IMG/VR virus record: IMGVR_UViG_3300027603_000001
Span: 1-64,000 of that record
Origin: a virus
Direction: 5' to 3' (one strand)
Length of the DNA stretch: 64,000 bases
Shown here one piece after another: positions 5,044-63,828 of this stretch; the first letter of the stretch is position 1; each line of letters opens with the position of its first letter. Under the pieces are notes generated by a model. That model saw nothing but the letters and a program-made list of their open reading frames with translations, was not told the origin of the DNA and did no database searches. A program made the position numbers and the translations under genes.

Positions 5044-5628
5044 ATTTCTGCGCTTTTTGGAGGAAAGACAGCTAGTGAGAAGGCCAACGAGCAGACCTTT
5101 AATACTGCCTTCCAGCCACTCATCACTCAACAAACCGGGGCCAGTAAGTCAGCGCTGGACTTTGCACTGCCATTGTTGAGTCAAGGCACGTCTACACTGC
5201 AAGGGCCGCTTAACTATTTCAAAACACTGGCAGGCGGCGACCGTACAGCTATCTCACAACTTCTTGGCCCGCAACTTGACACTATTGCGCAGGGCGATGC
5301 ACAGGCTCGGCAGAATTTCTCCCAGTTCGCACGGCGCGGTTCGATGATGGAGAATCGGTTAGGTGAGCAGAGTCAAGCGACTACTAGCGACATCAACCGC
5401 ATGTTTCTTTCGGCTCGACCAGAAGCAAATTCACAGCTAAGTGACATTGCACAGTTGCTATTTGGTACGGGGATATCAGGACTGAACGCATCTACAGGTG
5501 CAAGTGGCAATGCGTTGGGTGCTTTGCTTAATTATCGCAGTGGCAATCAACAGTCTCAAGCGCTTCGTCAACAGGGTAATAGTAATATCTTTCGATTGGC
5601 AAACTTTGCATGGAGTGGGGCGGGGTAA
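5044..5628 (+). CDS. internal virion/ejection protein candidate (start uncertain)
   Basis: The frame is open from 5026 with protein-like sequence (ISALFGGKTASEKANEQ...). A strong SD TAAGGAGGG lies at 5028-5036, but the only start 8 nt downstream is ATT at 5044. The first canonical start is TTG at 5173. Confidence 0.6.
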   Translation: MSALFGGKTASEKANEQTFNTAFQPLITQQTGASKSALDFALPLLSQGTSTLQGPLNYFKTLAGGDRTAISQLLGPQLDTIAQGDAQARQNFSQFARRGSMMENRLGEQSQATTSDINRMFLSARPEANSQLSDIAQLLFGTGISGLNASTGASGNALGALLNYRSGNQQSQALRQQGNSNIFRLANFAWSGAG

Positions 5629-5698
5629 TGCGCTTGGAACAATGTCATTATTCACTTTCTTGGCGTAAGATTCGTAAGCTATATAAGGTGTAAACTAG

Positions 5699-6823
5699 AT
5701 GCCTGACGGTGGCCCGCTACAAATGTTATTTGGGCAGAGTGCGCAGAGTGAAGCTGACCAGCAACAGGCTCGGCACCAACAAGTGTCAGAACTAAGCCAA
5801 CTGCTTGATCGGCCCGATGTGACGTTGGACGCTAAGCAGGCCATTGCTACCCATCTTGAAGACTTGATGAACGTGCCGTCCAAGAACAAGGGGCTGATAC
5901 CGATTATCACCAGTATTTTCCATCACCAGCAGCAAACTCAACAGCCGCCTGCTTGGCAAGTACCGGAACTCTATGGCAACCGTAATGCTCGCGTACCTGA
6001 CGTTGCCGCATCTCCCGATTTTGGCTACCAACCTGCTGCGAATCCCGTTGGCCCAAACATACTCACGGAAACTGGCACACCTCCCAGCCCTGAAGGCCAA
6101 CGGCGAGGCAGCATGACACCTGCGGACTTAGCGGCGCGACGGCAAGCAACCTTTGAAGCGCAGAAACAAAGTGATATGCAGGATCGGCAAGATTTTCTGG
6201 TTAAGTCACGGGGCGAGGAAGCACGAAAGTTGCAGCAGATGAAAGGTGATCAAGCATTTACCCGATTATCTACCCGTGATGATAGTCGGATGGCATTGCT
6301 CCATGAAGGTGAGAAATTGCGTGCTCAACGTCGTACAGCGGAACTTGCTGCCGCTTACCCTGATGCCACGCCTGATCAGATTGCGGAGAAGGTGCAGGGT
6401 GAAATTCAGGCGACCCAAGACCAGAAGGCTGCGCGTACCGCCTTTCTCACCGCGCAAACTCTAGCTATTCCACAGGCCACTGCAATCAAGTGGGCCAACC
6501 TCGACCAAACTGCTTTACGCAACGACATCTACCGTACGGCCACGGGCAACGCGGCAGACAAGGAAGCGCAACGGCAGGCAGTGGAACCAATGCTGGATGA
6601 GTTGAAGTCGGTGCAACGCAGCATTGAGTATCTGAGCAAGTTTCCTGCTGGTACGCCGCAGGCCGCGCAGCTCACCCAAGAGCAGGCCCACAAGGCTGGT
6701 GTACTAAATGAAATCTGGAAGGTAAATAGTCAGACTACACCGCAACAACCGACCAGCACTGTGCCGCAACGGAGTGGCGTGCCAGTAAAGCCGAAGAAAG
6801 ACCCGTTAGGGATATTTCAGTGA
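5699..6823 (+). CDS. internal virion/ejection protein candidate (Q-rich, coiled-coil)
   Basis: 374-aa ORF with ATG and SD AAGGTG. It lies between the small and giant ejection-protein candidates. Confidence 0.85.
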   Translation: MPDGGPLQMLFGQSAQSEADQQQARHQQVSELSQLLDRPDVTLDAKQAIATHLEDLMNVPSKNKGLIPIITSIFHHQQQTQQPPAWQVPELYGNRNARVPDVAASPDFGYQPAANPVGPNILTETGTPPSPEGQRRGSMTPADLAARRQATFEAQKQSDMQDRQDFLVKSRGEEARKLQQMKGDQAFTRLSTRDDSRMALLHEGEKLRAQRRTAELAAAYPDATPDQIAEKVQGEIQATQDQKAARTAFLTAQTLAIPQATAIKWANLDQTALRNDIYRTATGNAADKEAQRQAVEPMLDELKSVQRSIEYLSKFPAGTPQAAQLTQEQAHKAGVLNEIWKVNSQTTPQQPTSTVPQRSGVPVKPKKDPLGIFQ

Positions 6824-26390: not shown

Positions 26391-27005
26391 ATGATTCAAG
26401 GGATTTACAGAATTCGGCACTTGGGCACTGACGCCGCTTATGTAGGACAAGCCAGTAATATTCATAAAAGGTGGGTAGCTCATAGGTATAAATTGCGGCT
26501 GAATCGCCATACCAGTCCGAAGCTACAAATGTTCTGGAATACATATGGTGCGGTGTTCTTTGTCTTTGAGGTTTTGGAAAGAATTGAGAAATGGGAGGAT
26601 TTACAGTCTGCGGAGCAACGATACATAGACGCTGAAAAGATACTGCTTAATCAAGTCCCTCGCGCGGGCGGTGGCCCTATTATTGGGCACAAAGTTTCAG
26701 AATCGACTAGACAGAAAATAAGTGCCATTAACAAAGGACGGAAGCATAGCGCCGAATTTAGAGCAGCGCAATCAGCACAACGATTAGGTAAACCCAGAAA
26801 GTTATCCCCAGAAGGACGTGCGAAAATGTCGGCCTTTATGAGTGGCAATAAGTACAATGGTAAAAGCAATCAAATTCATTGTATCTATGGACATCTTCTG
26901 CCTACTCGGTTGCGAAGCGACGGTAGACGGAAAAATTGCTTTCTTTGCAGCAAGCGCCGTTGCCAAGAGCATGTACGACGAAAGGCGCAGAACTTAAACT
27001 GTTAG
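26391..27005 (+). CDS. GIY-YIG homing endonuclease (I-TevI/Seg-like) with NUMOD3-type repeats
   Basis: GIYRIRH..AYVGQASNIHKRW..AEQRYI covers GIY, YVG, and the conserved R and E. NUMOD3-like repeats follow (SESTRQKISAINKGRKHS, SPEGRAKMSAFMSG). The gene is visibly AT-richer than its flanks. Confidence 0.85.
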   Translation: MIQGIYRIRHLGTDAAYVGQASNIHKRWVAHRYKLRLNRHTSPKLQMFWNTYGAVFFVFEVLERIEKWEDLQSAEQRYIDAEKILLNQVPRAGGGPIIGHKVSESTRQKISAINKGRKHSAEFRAAQSAQRLGKPRKLSPEGRAKMSAFMSGNKYNGKSNQIHCIYGHLLPTRLRSDGRRKNCFLCSKRRCQEHVRRKAQNLNC

Positions 27006-29585: not shown

Positions 29586-29742
29586 TACTACTCCTTTGTT
29601 CCGCAATGAATTCCACCCCGCAATACGAGCAGAAGTTAGGTGATGGGTAGTCATAAGCCTCATAAGTATCCTCGTGGCACTCTGAACACGTCCACGCCGT
29701 TACCATCATTGAATCACTGTAGTGTTCGATTGTTGCGGCCAT
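29557..29742 (-). CDS. zinc-ribbon protein
   Basis: 61 aa with CSEC...CSYC. Confidence 0.65.
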   Translation of the reverse strand: MAATIEHYSDSMMVTAWTCSECHEDTYEAYDYPSPNFCSYCGVEFIAEQRSSNGTKSKPSA

Positions 29743-29836
29743 AGGTTGTTATCATCACGGGCGGCAAGAGTGCTTATGGCTCACCTTGTCGCTAATCCTG
29801 CCACCCGCCGTCATGCGCCCCTCTGCGCTGACATTG

Positions 29837-30109
29837 CTATTTACCCACCCGTTCCTTTACGCGACCAAGCATTGCATCTGCGAGTTTAGATTTAGAGCCG
29901 TGGTAGCTTGAATCAGCCAATATGATTTGTGACATCACCCGCAGCAACCATGCACTATCCGTGGTGACATCTATTTCAGGAAGTGGCTCTAATACGCGCA
30001 CAGAACCAAGTTGATCTTCAGCTAGAAGAATATAGCCATCGGCTTCAAGTGCTTTCCGCGTCTTAGTTGGCACTTTTAGTTCTACGGGATAAATTAAAAG
30101 CTTTGCCAT
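29837..30109 (-). CDS. hypothetical protein (90 aa)
   Basis: The globular part of track ORF 29837..30433 starts at MAKLLIYPVEL. The 108-codon upstream extension is Arg/Gly/Pro-rich and not protein-like. Confidence 0.6.
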   Translation of the reverse strand: MAKLLIYPVELKVPTKTRKALEADGYILLAEDQLGSVRVLEPLPEIDVTTDSAWLLRVMSQIILADSSYHGSKSKLADAMLGRVKERVGK

Positions 30110-30779
30110 TAGATTCTCTTTTTCACCAACCATCCCCCAGCACCCCGCACTGATTTCACGCGCTCGATACGGGGTACTGGAGGGGTGGTTGCACCTGAAC
30201 GCTCCCTCACGTCCAAGTTTATTTACGGGACAGAGAGCAGGACGCTTGCTCAATAACCAACTCCCTACCCCGTGTCGCCCCTTCACCCACGTCTGGTGCT
30301 GATACCGACCGCTGGTGGAGGGTACGAATTGTTTCAAGTTGGTAGTCAGGGAGACGTGCAACGATACGCTCCTGACGATCCCCGGCTGAGGTTGCCGTTT
30401 CCGTTGCTCAACCCGTGCTTTCACACGTACCAACCTGAATTGCGCGGGCTAGTTTTCTTCACGGTAGCACCACGAGGTTCATCCACTAGCAAGCTACAAG
30501 GAACCCCCAAAGCTTATGGTAAAGCGCACCCGTTCTCTATTGACCGCGCAAATTGACTATCAAACATCACATCAGGCTGGCCCGGCGCGCGTGTCGTTTC
30601 TAAGCTAGCGCGTTGGCGGCGATTGCTTGTACAGGGCAACGGCCTTTCTGCCAACCTGAACCTGTCAAATAATCGCGCACTCATTGGAGGCAGGAAGATG
30701 TTAGGCGGCGATACTCTAGCTCCTTACCCTTTCACCGTCATGTCCTTCTAGAGCGTTCTGCCTCTATCAGTGCACGATG
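30110..30779 (-). ncRNA. candidate large structured RNA / untranslated region (unclassified)
   Basis: 670 nt lack a convincing CDS in an otherwise overlapping gene chain. Nested perfect helices: 30440-47/30544-51, 30448-53/30485-90, 30491-95/30511-15, 30714-19/30748-53. CCAACCTGAA is repeated at 30430 and 30651. Confidence 0.3.
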
Positions 30780-31193
30780 TCAAATATCAACCGCTACAGG
30801 CTGTATCTGCTCAGCCACCCAACGCCTCACCCGTGACCATCGTTGTTGTGGGGTCTCTTGCCAATTCCCAGCTTCGTCGTTGATATAGACAATCTCCGCT
30901 GCGAGTTGATGCGCAATACCGAACGCTTCGGCTACCTGTTCAGGATCTTCAGGGTCAAGTTCACTGATTGGAAGACCGCGTTTGTTCCCTAGAACACCCA
31001 AGACACAATGGTCGCCATCCGTGTTAACCAACGCTTCGGCAATCAATATCTTCTCAGGCATCTCGTCGAGGGCTTCAAGCAGATCGAGCAACAAAGACTG
31101 TCCGCGCTTCCCACGAATCGCTGAAACTACCTGTCCGCGCCACTTGATTAAGACCCAAGAGTCTAAATCATCACTATAGTTACTTCTACTCAT
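30780..31193 (-). CDS. hypothetical protein (137 aa)
   Basis: Clean ORF with a GGGAG SD. It is isolated by untranslated gaps on both sides. Confidence 0.8.
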   Translation of the reverse strand: MSRSNYSDDLDSWVLIKWRGQVVSAIRGKRGQSLLLDLLEALDEMPEKILIAEALVNTDGDHCVLGVLGNKRGLPISELDPEDPEQVAEAFGIAHQLAAEIVYINDEAGNWQETPQQRWSRVRRWVAEQIQPVAVDI

Positions 31194-31214
31194 TTACATA
31201 CGCTCCCGAATTCG

Positions 31215-31272
31215 CCGCAGAAAGGAGCCTTAGCCGCGTTGCGAGCGTTAGGCAGGAAGCTCCTCCCTGCGG
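31215..31272 (-). promoter_or_regulatory. 5' UTR hairpin (14-bp stem)
   Basis: 31215-28 pairs with 31259-72. The two non-Watson-Crick positions are G-U on the minus-sense RNA but A-C on the plus sense, which favours a minus-strand RNA structure. Confidence 0.4.
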
Positions 31273-31411
31273 GTATCCCGGCCCCATAGAACTTGGAGTA
31301 AAGTGGAGCGGGAAGATGGTTAGAGGGCTTACACCAGCGTCTTACCGCCGATATGCTGCTTGCGCAGGTTCTTATCGGGCTGACGCCTCGGCACTTACTG
31401 CACTGGATGCC

Positions 31412-31855
31412 TCAAATTGTCAATGAACTTCGGTGCTTAAACCACGATGCTAGAAACCTCAGCGTAATCCGTTCGGCAAACAATCGGCTATCACAAAAGA
31501 ACACTGGTATCGCGTGCTGTGCGCTGTAGCTCACCAGCCCGCCAACCACCGACGCGGCATTGGTTCGTTGGATTCTAGCAGGTTGTACGGTCAACGCGGT
31601 TAGTGAACACTCGATAACGATAGCCGCTCGGTCGAGTTTAGCAAGCCGCTCGACACAGCGTTGGAAGCGCGCACGCCCTAAGCTCATACTACCCCAACAA
31701 TCATTGTAACTCTTGCGCTCCACGGCTACCTTATCCTCGAACCCGACCAAACTGTAATCTCCCTGCTTCAGCGTACCACGAACCGTTACGAAGCCGTCGA
31801 AGATGAATGGAGCTTGTTCGCGCGTATCAACCACAATCGCCGGAAACTCAGCCAT
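31412..31855 (-). CDS. ERCC4-type structure-specific nuclease (resolvase-like)
   Basis: VVDTREQ...GDYSL...VAVERKSYNDCWGS matches the ERCC4 D.RE / GDY / ERK..D motifs. Start at 31855 (TAATG coupling). Confidence 0.7.
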   Translation of the reverse strand: MAEFPAIVVDTREQAPFIFDGFVTVRGTLKQGDYSLVGFEDKVAVERKSYNDCWGSMSLGRARFQRCVERLAKLDRAAIVIECSLTALTVQPARIQRTNAASVVGGLVSYSAQHAIPVFFCDSRLFAERITLRFLASWFKHRSSLTI

Positions 31856-32727
31856 TAAAATGGCGCGCCGTCGCTTTCTGTCCAGCAAGTATCCCGCACC
31901 GCGCAGTAATCACACCCTGACTTCGTGCCAAATTGGATCGACTTACCGACCAACGGCAGGTCGCTCCACTTCACCGCACCGGTAGCAACCATGTTGGCCT
32001 GGTGGAGCAGTTGCTCGACGCTGTATCCACAGTCGTACGGTTGGTGGGCTAGCGCGGCTTCGACCGACATGATAGCGACTGGCTCCGACCACATTGCGTC
32101 GCTGAACGCCCACCAGATTGCCGCAGCGTCCCATGCGTGACCGAATTGTTGGCGGTATAGTTCGGCGTAGAGTGATAGCTGAACCTTGTACTCGGTTGGT
32201 GCACCCTGCGCTTCGATTACCCGCTTGCCAAACCTCCCGCCACGGATATACACCGCTCGACTGTCCTTACCAGTCTTGTGGTCTTCACCAACCAACTTGC
32301 CGTCGATGTAGCGCACTCGGTCGATCTTGCCGGTAACGCGAATGCCAGCCAGCTCACCCGCTACGTCAATCTCCGCACCAACACCTTGAGGCATTTCTAC
32401 CGCCCCAGCCAACTCGTCAGGCAGTACCGCCAAGGTCTGCTTAAAGCAAGCCACCTCCATCAAGCTATGCCACGCTGTACCTTTCAACGGTGTGAGCATG
32501 CCCAGCGGGTCAACCGCTACGTCCTCAGCGGTCATAATCGCGGCCTTGCGCACACACCCTAAACCCATCGACACCCTGACGCCGCCGCGCTCGCTCTGTA
32601 AGTCACGGTCAGCGAGCACCGCAGCAGCATAGTCAGGGTGCACCACTGCCCCGCACGAAGTAGTAGCAAAGTGGTCAAGCGGTACGGCCTGCTTGCATGA
32701 CGGACAGAGCCATTGAGTGATAGGCAT
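31855..32727 (-). CDS. PD-(D/E)XK exonuclease with Cas4-like 4Fe-4S cluster
   Basis: GKIDRV..GEDHKTGK (D..D/E-x-K) plus C-terminal CDYCAVRDTC (C-x2-C-x5-C) and an N-terminal Cys pair. Start set at ATG 32727 after AAGGA. Confidence 0.75.
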   Translation of the reverse strand: MPITQWLCPSCKQAVPLDHFATTSCGAVVHPDYAAAVLADRDLQSERGGVRVSMGLGCVRKAAIMTAEDVAVDPLGMLTPLKGTAWHSLMEVACFKQTLAVLPDELAGAVEMPQGVGAEIDVAGELAGIRVTGKIDRVRYIDGKLVGEDHKTGKDSRAVYIRGGRFGKRVIEAQGAPTEYKVQLSLYAELYRQQFGHAWDAAAIWWAFSDAMWSEPVAIMSVEAALAHQPYDCGYSVEQLLHQANMVATGAVKWSDLPLVGKSIQFGTKSGCDYCAVRDTCWTESDGAPF

Positions 32728-32775
32728 GGTGTTCCTTACAGTTAACTTAGGTTTACCATAGTTAACCATGGTTAA

Positions 32776-35920: not shown

Positions 35921-36157
35921 TTACTTGGCATGAGTAGTGCTCTGAGGCTTGGATAATTTCACGTAATTGTTAGTGGCTTTTAGTAGTCGCTTAATTGCAT
36001 TTTCCATAAGATTGTGGCGACTAGACATCTGTACGCTCCAATCAGGCGGATCGTCTCCAGTGTTGTGAAAGAGCGCGTCGGCTTTAGCAAACGCTTTGGC
36101 ATAAGCCACCGCGGCCTTGACCACCTTCCGACGCGCTACCTCAACCCTTATCGCCAT
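35921..36157 (-). CDS. hypothetical protein
   Basis: 78-aa ORF. Confidence 0.7.
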   Translation of the reverse strand: MAIRVEVARRKVVKAAVAYAKAFAKADALFHNTGDDPPDWSVQMSSRHNLMENAIKRLLKATNNYVKLSKPQSTTHAK

Positions 36158-39208: not shown

Positions 39209-40447
39209 ATGGCGTCACAGACCGCGTTGCGTGATGTTTTTCTAGGTAAGCACCCTTATATAAAATTCGGGCTAGGTCAATGGCGCGAGTACAAAGACGG
39301 CATCTGGGAAGAAGTGCCGGAACTTTCAGTTAAGAACAATGTTCAAACGATTGTCCAAGCAAGCCCTACGACACGAATGTCAAGTGGGGTGGTCACGTCG
39401 ATTACTGAACTACTGAAACAACGAACAGCTCTTCCTGACCGTATCTTTGATTTCAACCCAAACATTTTAGTATTCAATAATTGCTGTCTCGACCTGACCA
39501 CCTATTTATCCGTCCCTCACGCTCCGTCGTATTACGCCACCCAAAAGCTTAAATTTGATTACGATCCCGAAGCGCAATCAGTCGCATGGGACAAGGCAGT
39601 TACGTCGTTTCCGTGTGTTGACGTGCTTCAGCGGTTCGCAGGACTCGCACTAACGACCGAGACCAAGTATGAGGTTGCCTTATGGCTCCACGGGCCACCG
39701 GGCGGCGGTAAGTCTACCTTTATCATCGGCCTTGAGACAATGCTGGGGCATCGGGCTTGCGTACTAGGTCTTGACGACCTATCGCGGTCAAACTTTGCCC
39801 TCTCACAAATTCCCGGTAAAACATTGGCCGTCTCGACCGAACAGCCTGCAATTTTCGTCAAGTGCGCCCACAAACTTAACTCCTTGATTTCCGGCGAGTC
39901 TATCACCATTGAAGAGAAATTCATGCCGCGTTACACAATCCAGCCAAAGCTAAAAATCCTTTGGGCCATGAATGAACTACCCGTAATACCAAGTGGAGCT
40001 GGGGCTGGACTGTTTCGCCGTGTGTATCCAATTTATTGGCCCGCCATCCCGGAACTTGAACGCAAGCCTGAGATGAAGGATGAAATTGCGCATAGTGGGA
40101 TGGCGATTGTTAATTGGGCGCTAGAAGGACTGAAACGGTTGCAAGCTGCCAACCGATTTGAGATACCCGTCGAACTGTCTCAAGCCCGCGACACTTACCG
40201 CGAAATGGGTGACGTGACTCTGACCTTTATCACTGAATGTTGCGACCACGACGGGGAAACAGGCAGCGACGATCTTTACCGCCGTTACTCCGATTGGTGT
40301 GACCAAAATGGGCACCACGCACTCGCCAGCAACCGCTTTTCTGTCGATTTGGAGCGCTTGGGCTTTACCCGAAGGCGCAAAAACACTGGTCAATACTGGC
40401 CCGGCCTAACCCTAAAAGTGACCCTCGACAACGCTGTCGTCCATTAA
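39209..40447 (+). CDS. SF3 replicative helicase, P4/D5 primase C-terminal family
   Basis: 412 aa with Walker A WLHGPPGGGKSTFI. The overall layout resembles the phage/plasmid primase P4-family C-terminal domain. No AEP or Toprim primase domain is visible. Confidence 0.75.
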   Translation: MASQTALRDVFLGKHPYIKFGLGQWREYKDGIWEEVPELSVKNNVQTIVQASPTTRMSSGVVTSITELLKQRTALPDRIFDFNPNILVFNNCCLDLTTYLSVPHAPSYYATQKLKFDYDPEAQSVAWDKAVTSFPCVDVLQRFAGLALTTETKYEVALWLHGPPGGGKSTFIIGLETMLGHRACVLGLDDLSRSNFALSQIPGKTLAVSTEQPAIFVKCAHKLNSLISGESITIEEKFMPRYTIQPKLKILWAMNELPVIPSGAGAGLFRRVYPIYWPAIPELERKPEMKDEIAHSGMAIVNWALEGLKRLQAANRFEIPVELSQARDTYREMGDVTLTFITECCDHDGETGSDDLYRRYSDWCDQNGHHALASNRFSVDLERLGFTRRRKNTGQYWPGLTLKVTLDNAVVH

Positions 40448-61116: not shown

Positions 61117-61352
61117 GTTGCAACAGAGCGGAAGGACGCCTATTGTACAGCGAGTTATATCTATTCACGGGACTGCGTAAGTACACGTGGCGCTGTTATC
61201 ATGGCAGCGGGGTAGATATGAGAGTTGGTTTCGAGTCCAACTTGTAACTCTATAACAACTGAAGGCCGTTTCAGCGGGCAACCGCTAATCGCCGTCTCAA
61301 GGTTATCGACGACAAAGTTCGTTGTTAATCGTGAGGCGGTTTTCGCTTTCTT

Positions 61353-62688: not shown

Positions 62689-63828
62689 ATGTCCATTAAT
62701 ATCAATTGGTTAAACGCGATAACCTACAGAAGTATCAATCCTATCTCAATCGAAGACCTCGTGTTCCGCAAAGGCGCACTGCTTGCCAACCTGCGCAAGA
62801 ACGGGTTTGAGCCGTACACGGGTGGTGTCTCAATGGACACGGCCATGATTTACGACTCGATGATTGGCGGGTTCTATGACACAGGTAGCCCGTTATCCAC
62901 CGAGGTAGTGCAGCCCATCGCCGGTCAGACCTTCACGCCGCGCAAGTCGTACACCACGGTCAGCGAATATCTGGAGAATCTGGCAGTCAACCGTGGGCCA
63001 GCGGCAGTGTTTAGTGCGTTGCGCGTGAAACATCGCGTTGCTATGAACACGCTGAACACCATCTGGAACATTGGGCTATGGTTGCATGGCCAGAACCTCT
63101 CTGGTGACAATCGTTTGCTTTTTACCAATGGTCTTGAGGAAGCGTTGAACGATGGCGTGACCCAAAGCTGGCGTGGCAACATCTTCACATCTTACGGTGG
63201 TCAAACCCGCAACGCGGAAGTTGGCGTCGGCTACAACAGCGTTCCCTACTTTGGCGGCGACTCCACCACTGGCGCGGCTGGTCAGCTTACTTACGACAAG
63301 ATGGTTGACATGCACTTGCGCGGTACAGAAGGCGACCGGATGCCTAACCTCTACATTTCCAATAAGGCAATGTGGGGTTTCGCGCTCAAGCGGGTTCAGG
63401 CCCAGCAACACTTCCGGTTTGACCGTGATATTGGCACTGACGCGGTGTATGGCGCTCGTTCTATCAAGTTTATGAACGGCGATTGGGTAATTGATAATTA
63501 CGCGCCATCGTCCAGCACGCAGTTTGGCTTGAATGAAGCAAAGTTAGGCAACTATCAAACCAGCGCGACGATCACCATTTCTGGCACACCAGCCGCAGGC
63601 AGCAATCTACCGGCTTCGGGCACCTTTGTACCCGGTGAAGTGGTTGCCATGCTCAATACTGACACGTGGAAGTATCGGCTCAGCGACCACCCGTTATTCA
63701 AATTCGGGTTCCGTGACTACGTGCCTAACCAAGTGGACAACTTGATCGTTGGCCGTATTCACGCAATGGGCACGGCATATTGCACTGCGCCTTGGTTGAA
63801 TGTCCTTGGCATGGGCTTTAATTCGTAA
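62689..63828 (+). CDS. major capsid protein (putative)
   Basis: 379 aa with strong SD AAGGAG. Called from its position after the scaffold gene. Confidence 0.7.
   Translation: MSININWLNAITYRSINPISIEDLVFRKGALLANLRKNGFEPYTGGVSMDTAMIYDSMIGGFYDTGSPLSTEVVQPIAGQTFTPRKSYTTVSEYLENLAVNRGPAAVFSALRVKHRVAMNTLNTIWNIGLWLHGQNLSGDNRLLFTNGLEEALNDGVTQSWRGNIFTSYGGQTRNAEVGVGYNSVPYFGGDSTTGAAGQLTYDKMVDMHLRGTEGDRMPNLYISNKAMWGFALKRVQAQQHFRFDRDIGTDAVYGARSIKFMNGDWVIDNYAPSSSTQFGLNEAKLGNYQTSATITISGTPAAGSNLPASGTFVPGEVVAMLNTDTWKYRLSDHPLFKFGFRDYVPNQVDNLIVGRIHAMGTAYCTAPWLNVLGMGFNS

Follow-up and report, generated by a model that had tools for sequence, protein, structure and literature searches.

A predicted structured RNA module in the largest intergenic gap of an early operon of an uncultivated soil phage

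The early operon of an uncultivated phage, represented by IMG/VR virus record IMGVR_UViG_3300027603_000001, contains a gap of 670 nucleotides (nt) between two minus-strand genes, and it is this gap, together with an RNA fold predicted within it, that we describe here. All positions refer to the first 64,000 nt of the record (64 kb, hereafter the window), which cover most of a genome of ~68 kb known from metagenomes only; the lineage of the phage has been seen solely in soil metagenomes. From the sequence letters alone, the gap had been put forward as a candidate large structured RNA. This holds in part: a strongly structured segment is predicted on the transcribed strand, but it comprises ~313 nt rather than 670 nt, and it does not lie in the three-way junction that had been proposed.

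The locus and its coding potential

The gap lies within a run of minus-strand genes extending from ~27.9 to 48 kb, a leftward early/recombination operon, and the genes around it include those for a Sak4-like annealing protein, a PD-(D/E)XK exonuclease, an ERCC4-type nuclease and a DNA methyltransferase. Its limits are those originally given, the stop codon of the upstream 137-residue (137-aa) gene occupying 30780-30782, and public gene callers leave 646 nt of it uncalled (5415-6060 of locus L084). The original prediction emphasised the tight coupling of the operon. Most neighbouring genes do overlap or abut, but further gaps of 218, 173 and 168 nt also occur; the 670-nt gap is the largest intergenic gap of the operon. 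Features of the locus are collected in Table 1.

Table 1. Features in and around the gap
Feature	Positions	Strand	Basis	Remarks
ORF-poor gap between two minus-strand genes	30110..30779	-	list of open reading frames (ORFs), public gene calls, codon scores, no Pfam/PHROG match	
5' half of the gap	30440..30779	-	shuffle z, pair probabilities	no excess structure, no coding signal; holds the helices of the original prediction
Repeat copy A	30682..30731	-	profile search	core CTAACATCTTCCTGC; 49 nt past the stop of the 137-aa gene, inside the gap
Repeat copy B	31304..31359	-	profile search	core CTAACCATCTTCCCGC; 110 nt upstream of the ATG of the 137-aa gene
Predicted structured RNA module	30127..30439	-	RNA folding, shuffles	four-way junction followed by four hairpins; ends 18 nt ahead of ATG 30109
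Predicted four-way junction	30333..30439	-	z -3.89	closing helix of 12 bp (30439-30428 / 30344-30333)
Junction contents		-	predicted fold	GAAA-tetraloop hairpin 30414-30427; hairpin 30384-30413; hairpin C 30345-30376 (buries AGGAG)
Imperfect hairpin	30275..30327	-	predicted fold	4+4+4 bp plus inner pairs
14-bp hairpin	30225..30273	-	pair probability (P) 0.95	4 G-U pairs; lost with DNA parameters
10-bp hairpin	30193..30218	-	P 0.99	6-nt loop
23-bp hairpin	30127..30191	-	P at least 0.94	6+3+14 bp, no U tract; no 80-nt window of either strand in the 64 kb is more stable
137-aa gene (phrog_25637)	30780..31193	-	homologue and profile searches	function unassigned; widespread, non-syntenic
90-aa gene	29837..30109	-	start ATG 30109 set by orthologues	function unassigned

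By every available test the gap is non-coding. None of its frames has a positive codon score or comes up to the level of this phage's own genes, and no stop-to-stop piece in any frame matches Pfam or PHROGs. Two weak coding options had been pointed out beforehand, and both are present as described. The first is an in-frame extension of the 90-aa gene, open over 108 codons (30110-30433), a length that is moderately unusual (P = 0.011, 5000 dinucleotide shuffles). Its codon score of -2.6 falls at the 4.5th percentile of real genes, as against 8.4 +/- 5.8 for held-out real genes and -5.2 +/- 8.4 for open wrong-frame windows. The GC content of first codon positions (GC1) is about that of second positions (GC2), without the GC1>GC2 periodicity of real genes, and third-position GC content (GC3) shifts from 0.61 to 0.36 exactly at ATG 30109. 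The start of the 90-aa gene is assigned to this ATG because both of its orthologues, the only two found, begin MAKLL; neither carries the extension. Other callers begin the gene at ATG 30133 (98 aa), and the Joint Genome Institute (JGI) pipeline annotates a 174-aa gene from an in-frame TTG at 30361, 7 nt ahead of which sits an AGGAG, both AGGAG and TTG being buried in a helix of the predicted four-way junction. With the 108-aa extension as query, exhaustive searching of 1.84 billion representative proteins with HMMER gave a spurious tandem-repeat protein as the sole match.

The second option, a 56-aa minus-strand ORF (30514..30684), has a codon score of -4 and is preceded by CCUCC, not by a Shine-Dalgarno sequence. 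On the plus strand, no homologue was found for a 94-aa ORF within the gap. A 42-aa ORF starting with TTG (30623-30751, plus strand, antisense to the operon) does score 6.0 for codon usage; its PHROG match is very weak (E 0.09), and the ORF is probably noise. The statement that the gap holds no convincing gene is thus borne out by codon score, periodicity, orthologues and homologue searches alike.

A predicted RNA fold in the downstream half of the gap

Folded as a whole, the minus strand of the gap is more stable than its dinucleotide shuffles (z = -3.5), and this excess comes from the half next to the 90-aa gene. With exact boundaries the segment 30120-30442 reaches z -6.19 and 30120-30345 reaches z -5.17; with arbitrary window boundaries the module still scores between -4.0 and -5.1. 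As controls, 13 other intergenic stretches and five coding stretches gave values from +2.0 to -3.8. When both strands of the 64 kb were scanned in 300-nt windows, the best two of 1276 fell in the module, on the minus strand. At a finer scale, the window holding the 23-bp hairpin ranks first among 6394 80-nt windows (GC-corrected z -4.89).

The predicted fold is well defined. For the four-way junction alone, the minimum free energy (MFE) structure coincides with the centroid, with an ensemble frequency of 0.11. Helix pair probabilities are at least 0.95 in three sequence contexts, with the exception of hairpin C (30376-30345), for which the mean is 0.73. The hairpin with a GAAA loop at 30414-27, picked out in the original prediction, is part of this strongly structured half.

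The other helices of that prediction fared differently. All of their letters are present, namely TTGCGCGG at 30440-47 with CCGCGCAA at 30544-51, GCTAGT at 30448-53 with ACTAGC at 30485-90, AAGCT at 30491-95 with AGCTT at 30511-15, and CTCTAG at 30714-19 with CTAGAG at 30748-53. The region 30440-30779, however, which holds them and the three-way junction proposed from the first three, folds no better than dinucleotide shuffles (z -0.35 and -0.27), and a perfect 8-bp helix within 150 nt arises in 35% of shuffles. Pair probabilities for the helices at 30440-30551 range from 0 to 0.57, varying with the flanking context, and that of the CTCTAG/CTAGAG helix is 0. Similarly, the exact repeat CCAACCTGAA does occur at 30430 and 30651, but a 10-nt repeat is expected ~0.2 times by chance in 670 nt by our estimate. 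A long-range helix joining 30481-30495 to the start-codon region 30099-30114 has pair probabilities of 0.05 to 0.8 by context, and is too context-dependent to claim.

Two further properties bear on whether the module is RNA and on which strand. The four main helices contain one to four G-U pairs each, which in a cruciform or on the opposite strand would turn into A-C mismatches and so favour an RNA on the minus strand. The plus strand of the same segment (30120-30442) gives z -2.96, and DNA folding parameters give z -2.7 and -2.0, with disappearance of the 14-bp hairpin. An RNA on the minus (sense) strand is accordingly favoured, though not proven, by these predicted folds.

None of the module hairpins is followed by a U tract, the sequences after them being AAAUAAAC, GCAACCAC and GUGAAAAAG, and no terminator-like site was found in the gap. 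Intrinsic terminators were ruled out as the identity of these hairpins on this ground, while the phage has a textbook example elsewhere: a canonical hairpin with a U tract at 61291-61345 (plus strand). A terminator-like hairpin also occurs at ~36040-36110 (minus strand). Together these two sites indicate that the phage and its host use ordinary intrinsic terminators.

Searches against the covariance models of Rfam 15 gave no match at gathering thresholds anywhere in the window (cmscan). When the threshold was relaxed to E up to 10 for 29600-31300 and 30100-30460, only chance microRNA and long non-coding RNA matches of 14-22 bits were obtained. The large phage RNAs GOLLD, ROOL and HEARO, which had been named as possible classes, were not matched even at this level; nor did Rfam families of riboswitches or other cis-regulatory leaders match. 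For a group I intron, the remaining suggestion, there is likewise no Rfam match (group I/II), and the 137-aa and 90-aa genes on either side are each found elsewhere, in other genomes, as complete and independent genes, so that the gap is not an intron. As far as the models reach, these searches rule out GOLLD, ROOL, HEARO, group I/II introns, ribozymes and riboswitches, and by the same measure the module appears to belong to no known RNA class.

Two other structured sites were noted in the same operon. A 13-bp GC-rich hairpin without a U tract (29757-29808, minus strand) lies within the 95 nt that separate the 90-aa gene from the gene after it (ATG 29742), an intergenic region with z -2.5 to -2.8; it is a second intercistronic hairpin of similar style to the module. 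A very stable hairpin region at 32561-32640 (minus strand), third among the 6394 80-nt windows, lies in the 5' part of the PD-(D/E)XK exonuclease gene (31855-32769). The equivalent exonuclease windows of syntenic relatives (L092:5201-5500, L093:5101-5400 and L089:5201-5500) are the most structured of 1144, and this hairpin may be a conserved RNA structure inside a coding sequence.

Flanking genes, a direct repeat and related loci

The 137-aa gene belongs to a family without a Pfam domain that is very common in viromes of soil, freshwater and groundwater, with over 300 loci in metagenomes and 240 protein clusters (E <= 1e-30). Its neighbours differ in every locus (L004-L083, L108-L111), and with no conserved neighbours it behaves like a mobile accessory gene. 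The next ORF follows its homologues at a median distance of 0 in the 56 loci with enough flank. Among the closest relatives (73-76% identity), small ORFs or an HNH endonuclease come next, the endonuclease gene lying directly after the 137-aa homologue in L110/L111. A structured gap beside a 137-aa homologue was seen elsewhere only in L027, where an ORF-poor stretch of 327 nt (L027:4406-4732, z -3.97), unrelated in sequence to the module, precedes an excisionase/integrase pair. For the 90-aa protein, considered as a possible RNA binder, the AlphaFold model is of low confidence (mean predicted local distance difference test score 62, predicted template modelling score 0.31) and too poor for a fold search.

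The 137-aa gene is framed by a direct repeat of ~50 nt. The motif, with the consensus GGTAAG..GCT.G.GTA...CC.C..TAAC(C)ATCTTCCYGC, has exactly two copies in the window, which both lie on the minus strand and are ~75% identical (nhmmer E-values 1.5e-13 and 2.9e-12; next best 0.94). For its core CTAAC(C)ATCTTCCYGC, 0.03 occurrences would be expected in 64 kb, and two are found. The motif is missing from 93 related loci as well as from viral contigs of IMG/VR, and contains neither a sigma-70-like promoter nor a terminator stem-loop; at best there is a TAACAT hexamer without a -35 partner. The structured module itself is not repeated in the window. The repeat, which accounts for part of the unstructured half of the gap, may be a recombination or cassette boundary, or a regulatory site.

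Related loci were collected through the flanking and neighbouring genes: 3 viral and 80 metagenome loci, plus the closest Logan relatives at 73-76% identity, through the 137-aa gene; two orthologues through the 90-aa gene; seven syntenic phages through the ERCC4 nuclease; and none through the exonuclease. A block of Sak4, 155-aa, exonuclease and ERCC4 genes is common to the seven phages, and synteny stops right after ERCC4. No homologue of the gap was found in ~110 related loci (~470 kb) by blastn, nhmmer, tblastx or a covariance model of the junction. Exact patterns for the arms of the big hairpin gave no match in IMG/VR viral contigs, and in 185,579 genomes they gave 10 matches, in unrelated taxa and without extended similarity, as expected of chance. 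The gap thus appears to be an orphan in a hyperplastic (hypervariable accessory) region, for which support from covariation cannot be drawn.

At the level of the whole phage, the window has no nucleotide match among 50,697 deposited phages (blastn, INPHARED). It shares 100% identity with four public contigs, namely ENA ERZ27256056 k141_1167122, one from Logan (ERR1700738) and two from a single JGI sample (3300001081); all four are identical across the gap, and no strain variants were available for an analysis of microdiversity. The window contains no transfer RNA or transfer-messenger RNA genes (ARAGORN) and no integrase, ORF 39209-40447 being a D5-type primase-helicase. A GIY-YIG / NUMOD3 homing-endonuclease gene (26391-27005, plus strand) ends the rightward structural block, adjoining the convergent junction with the leftward operon.

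Interpretation and comparison with known systems

Our preferred reading, which we offer tentatively and rate somewhat short of an even chance, is that the module may act in cis between cistrons, as an RNA element that serves processing, stability or the control of translation, situated in a hypervariable accessory region. The segment 30779-30440 would then be an unstructured spacer carrying repeat copy A, and 30439-30127 would form a sense-strand fold acting in cis on the polycistronic early mRNA, as an intercistronic processing and stability element. Position and anatomy suggest a mechanism in which the terminal 23-bp hairpin would be the substrate of a double-strand-specific RNase (RNase III type) or a 5' stabiliser, and the module might also set translation of the downstream 90-aa gene. 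At 23 bp, the predicted stem of this hairpin has the length expected at RNase III sites, about two helical turns (20 bp or more), and it lies between cistrons and on the transcribed strand. The gap carries no coding signal, and the module within it has an excess of thermodynamic stability, a preference for the sense strand and a position just ahead of a start codon; that it is transcribed, has been selected for and has a role of this sort is what we infer from them.

The significance of the fold rests on the coincidence of the structural extreme with the sense strand of a gap that had been pre-selected for another reason, which by our estimate corresponds to p ~ 0.01-0.02. Several observations weigh against a functional element. 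A GC regression puts the module at only -3.2 SD (standard deviations), about the chance extreme of 1276 windows. Natural sequence has heavy tails, such that an unrelated antisense window, 63501-63800, reaches z -4.4. The asymmetry of MFE between the strands is unexceptional (rank 13-75 of 638), and no promoter, terminator or processing site was identified in the gap. The module is missing from 83 loci of the 137-aa gene, 3 loci of the 90-aa gene, 7 syntenic relatives and 4 closest relatives, and the regions upstream of the 90-aa orthologues are unrelated and unstructured (z +1.9 and +1.2), which indicates that the module is not a conserved leader of the 90-aa gene. The antisense window just mentioned (minus strand, antisense to ORF 62689..63828; z -4.36) is the only other place in the window that nears the module's score.

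A further possibility, in our judgement an unlikely one but the strongest of the alternatives, is that the gap is a functionless spacer, the debris of accessory-gene turnover, with hairpins that are incidental, such as remnant palindromes or decayed mobile DNA. An orphan without any conservation, located exactly where synteny breaks in relatives and where other cargo (the HNH endonuclease of L110/L111) is found elsewhere, is what such turnover would leave, and the direct repeats that bracket the 137-aa gene, as well as values of z about -4 in other windows without obvious function, fit this explanation too. It does not readily explain why the top structure score of 64 kb coincides with the sense strand of the operon's largest gap, and five adjacent, independent and well-defined helical domains are hard to obtain by decay. 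There is also no trace of protein similarity in any frame, and phage genomes are under pressure against junk.

The same structural evidence could also describe a novel non-coding RNA that acts in trans as a discrete molecule of ~310 to 570 nt, either released from the operon transcript by processing or transcribed from a promoter of its own close to the repeat. Such a molecule would represent a new class of phage structured RNA, close to the idea of the original prediction; we consider it rather improbable. Orthologues of the 90-aa gene occur without the module, which could therefore be an independent element, its well-defined fold includes a GNRA tetraloop and a four-way junction without spacers, and repeat copy A upstream could be a promoter. 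Against this, there is no Rfam family, homologue or covariation, no recognisable promoter or terminator marks its ends, and structure is confined to half of the gap, stopping 18 nt ahead of the start codon, as fits a leader better. More specifically, the 313-nt module, perhaps together with upstream sequence from ~30682, might be the first member of a new class of phage RNA with its own function, a proposal that we regard as doubtful. Its function might be, for example, that of a decoy or anti-defence RNA acting in trans, of a protein scaffold or of a ribozyme, and it would have been seen once because the phage lineage is barely sampled.

A protein-coding gap is improbable. It would require the 90-aa gene to be extended to 174 aa (TTG 30361) or 198 aa (TTG 30433), or one of the small ORFs (30514..30684 on the minus strand or 30623..30751 on the plus strand) to be translated. 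The 108 open codons, the AGGAG with the JGI call at TTG 30361 and the codon score of the 42-aa ORF speak for it; the codon score and absent periodicity of the extension, the GC3 shift at the ATG, orthologues without the extension, the lack of homologues and of Pfam or PHROGs matches, the burial of AGGAG and TTG in the junction, and the score and CCUCC of the 56-aa ORF all speak against it. Least probable of all is a DNA-level element, such as a replication origin, packaging site or recombination site using hairpins or cruciforms, for although folding of the inverted repeats is predicted for the plus strand as well (z -3.0) and the region adjoins the recombination genes for the Sak4-like protein, the PD-(D/E)XK exonuclease and the ERCC4 nuclease, the G-U pairs would be mismatched in DNA, the z scores with DNA parameters are only modest, and the gap shows no iterons, AT-rich stretch or GC-skew inflection. 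The specific idea of a replication origin, attP site or iteron array was rejected on similar grounds, with no repeats beyond chance and no integrase in the window.

Should the module prove functional, the cis-acting element that we favour would be an unusually elaborate one for an intercistronic position, with a four-way junction and four hairpins in 313 nt, in a phage lineage known solely from metagenomes of soil. It would be a candidate means by which such phages divide up or stabilise their long early transcripts or, less likely, a new class of phage RNA. For now, thermodynamics is the support for this single sequence, and no long-standing question is opened or settled by it. The value of the analysis is corrective, in that the helices first proposed are those of chance, the gap is not a GOLLD, ROOL or HEARO RNA or an intron, and the true signal is a different and smaller segment.

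Among known systems, the arrangement of the repeat recalls the PeSL cassettes (promoter-early stem-loops) of T4-type phages, in which brief non-coding repeats lie on either side of small accessory genes in hyperplastic regions, with a proposed role in modular shuffling (PMC2839356). Here too a repeat of ~50 nt brackets a mobile-looking gene of 137 aa in a hyperplastic region. Unlike PeSL, the repeat is present in two copies only in 64 kb and has no sigma-70-like promoter or terminator stem-loop, and the structured module is not itself repeated.

GOLLD, ROOL and HEARO are large, ornate RNAs often found in phages and prophages; for the first two, structures are known (PMC12286853). With these RNAs the gap shares a large gene-free stretch of phage DNA and a multi-domain predicted RNA fold. 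It differs from them in matching no model, in having only ~313 nt of structure, in being a single sequence without family or covariation, and in its leader position 18 nt ahead of a start codon.

The put sites of phage HK022 encode a processive-antitermination RNA of ~70 nt with two stem-loops, just downstream of promoters. As a predicted stem-loop RNA that would act in cis within a phage early operon, the module may resemble put, but unlike put it has no promoter and no nearby terminators to override.

In phage T7, early mRNA is processed at intercistronic RNase III hairpins, and hairpins that act as 5' stabilisers are also known. The T7 hairpins are single and of ~60 nt, whereas the module consists of five adjacent domains, including a four-way junction, over 313 nt; there is no sequence similarity, and the stem of the module is a candidate for cleavage. 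What it has in common with the RNase III and 5'-stabiliser hairpins is its anatomy and its place: long hairpins (~20 bp or more) without U tracts, between early cistrons, on the sense strand and just ahead of the next ribosome-binding site.

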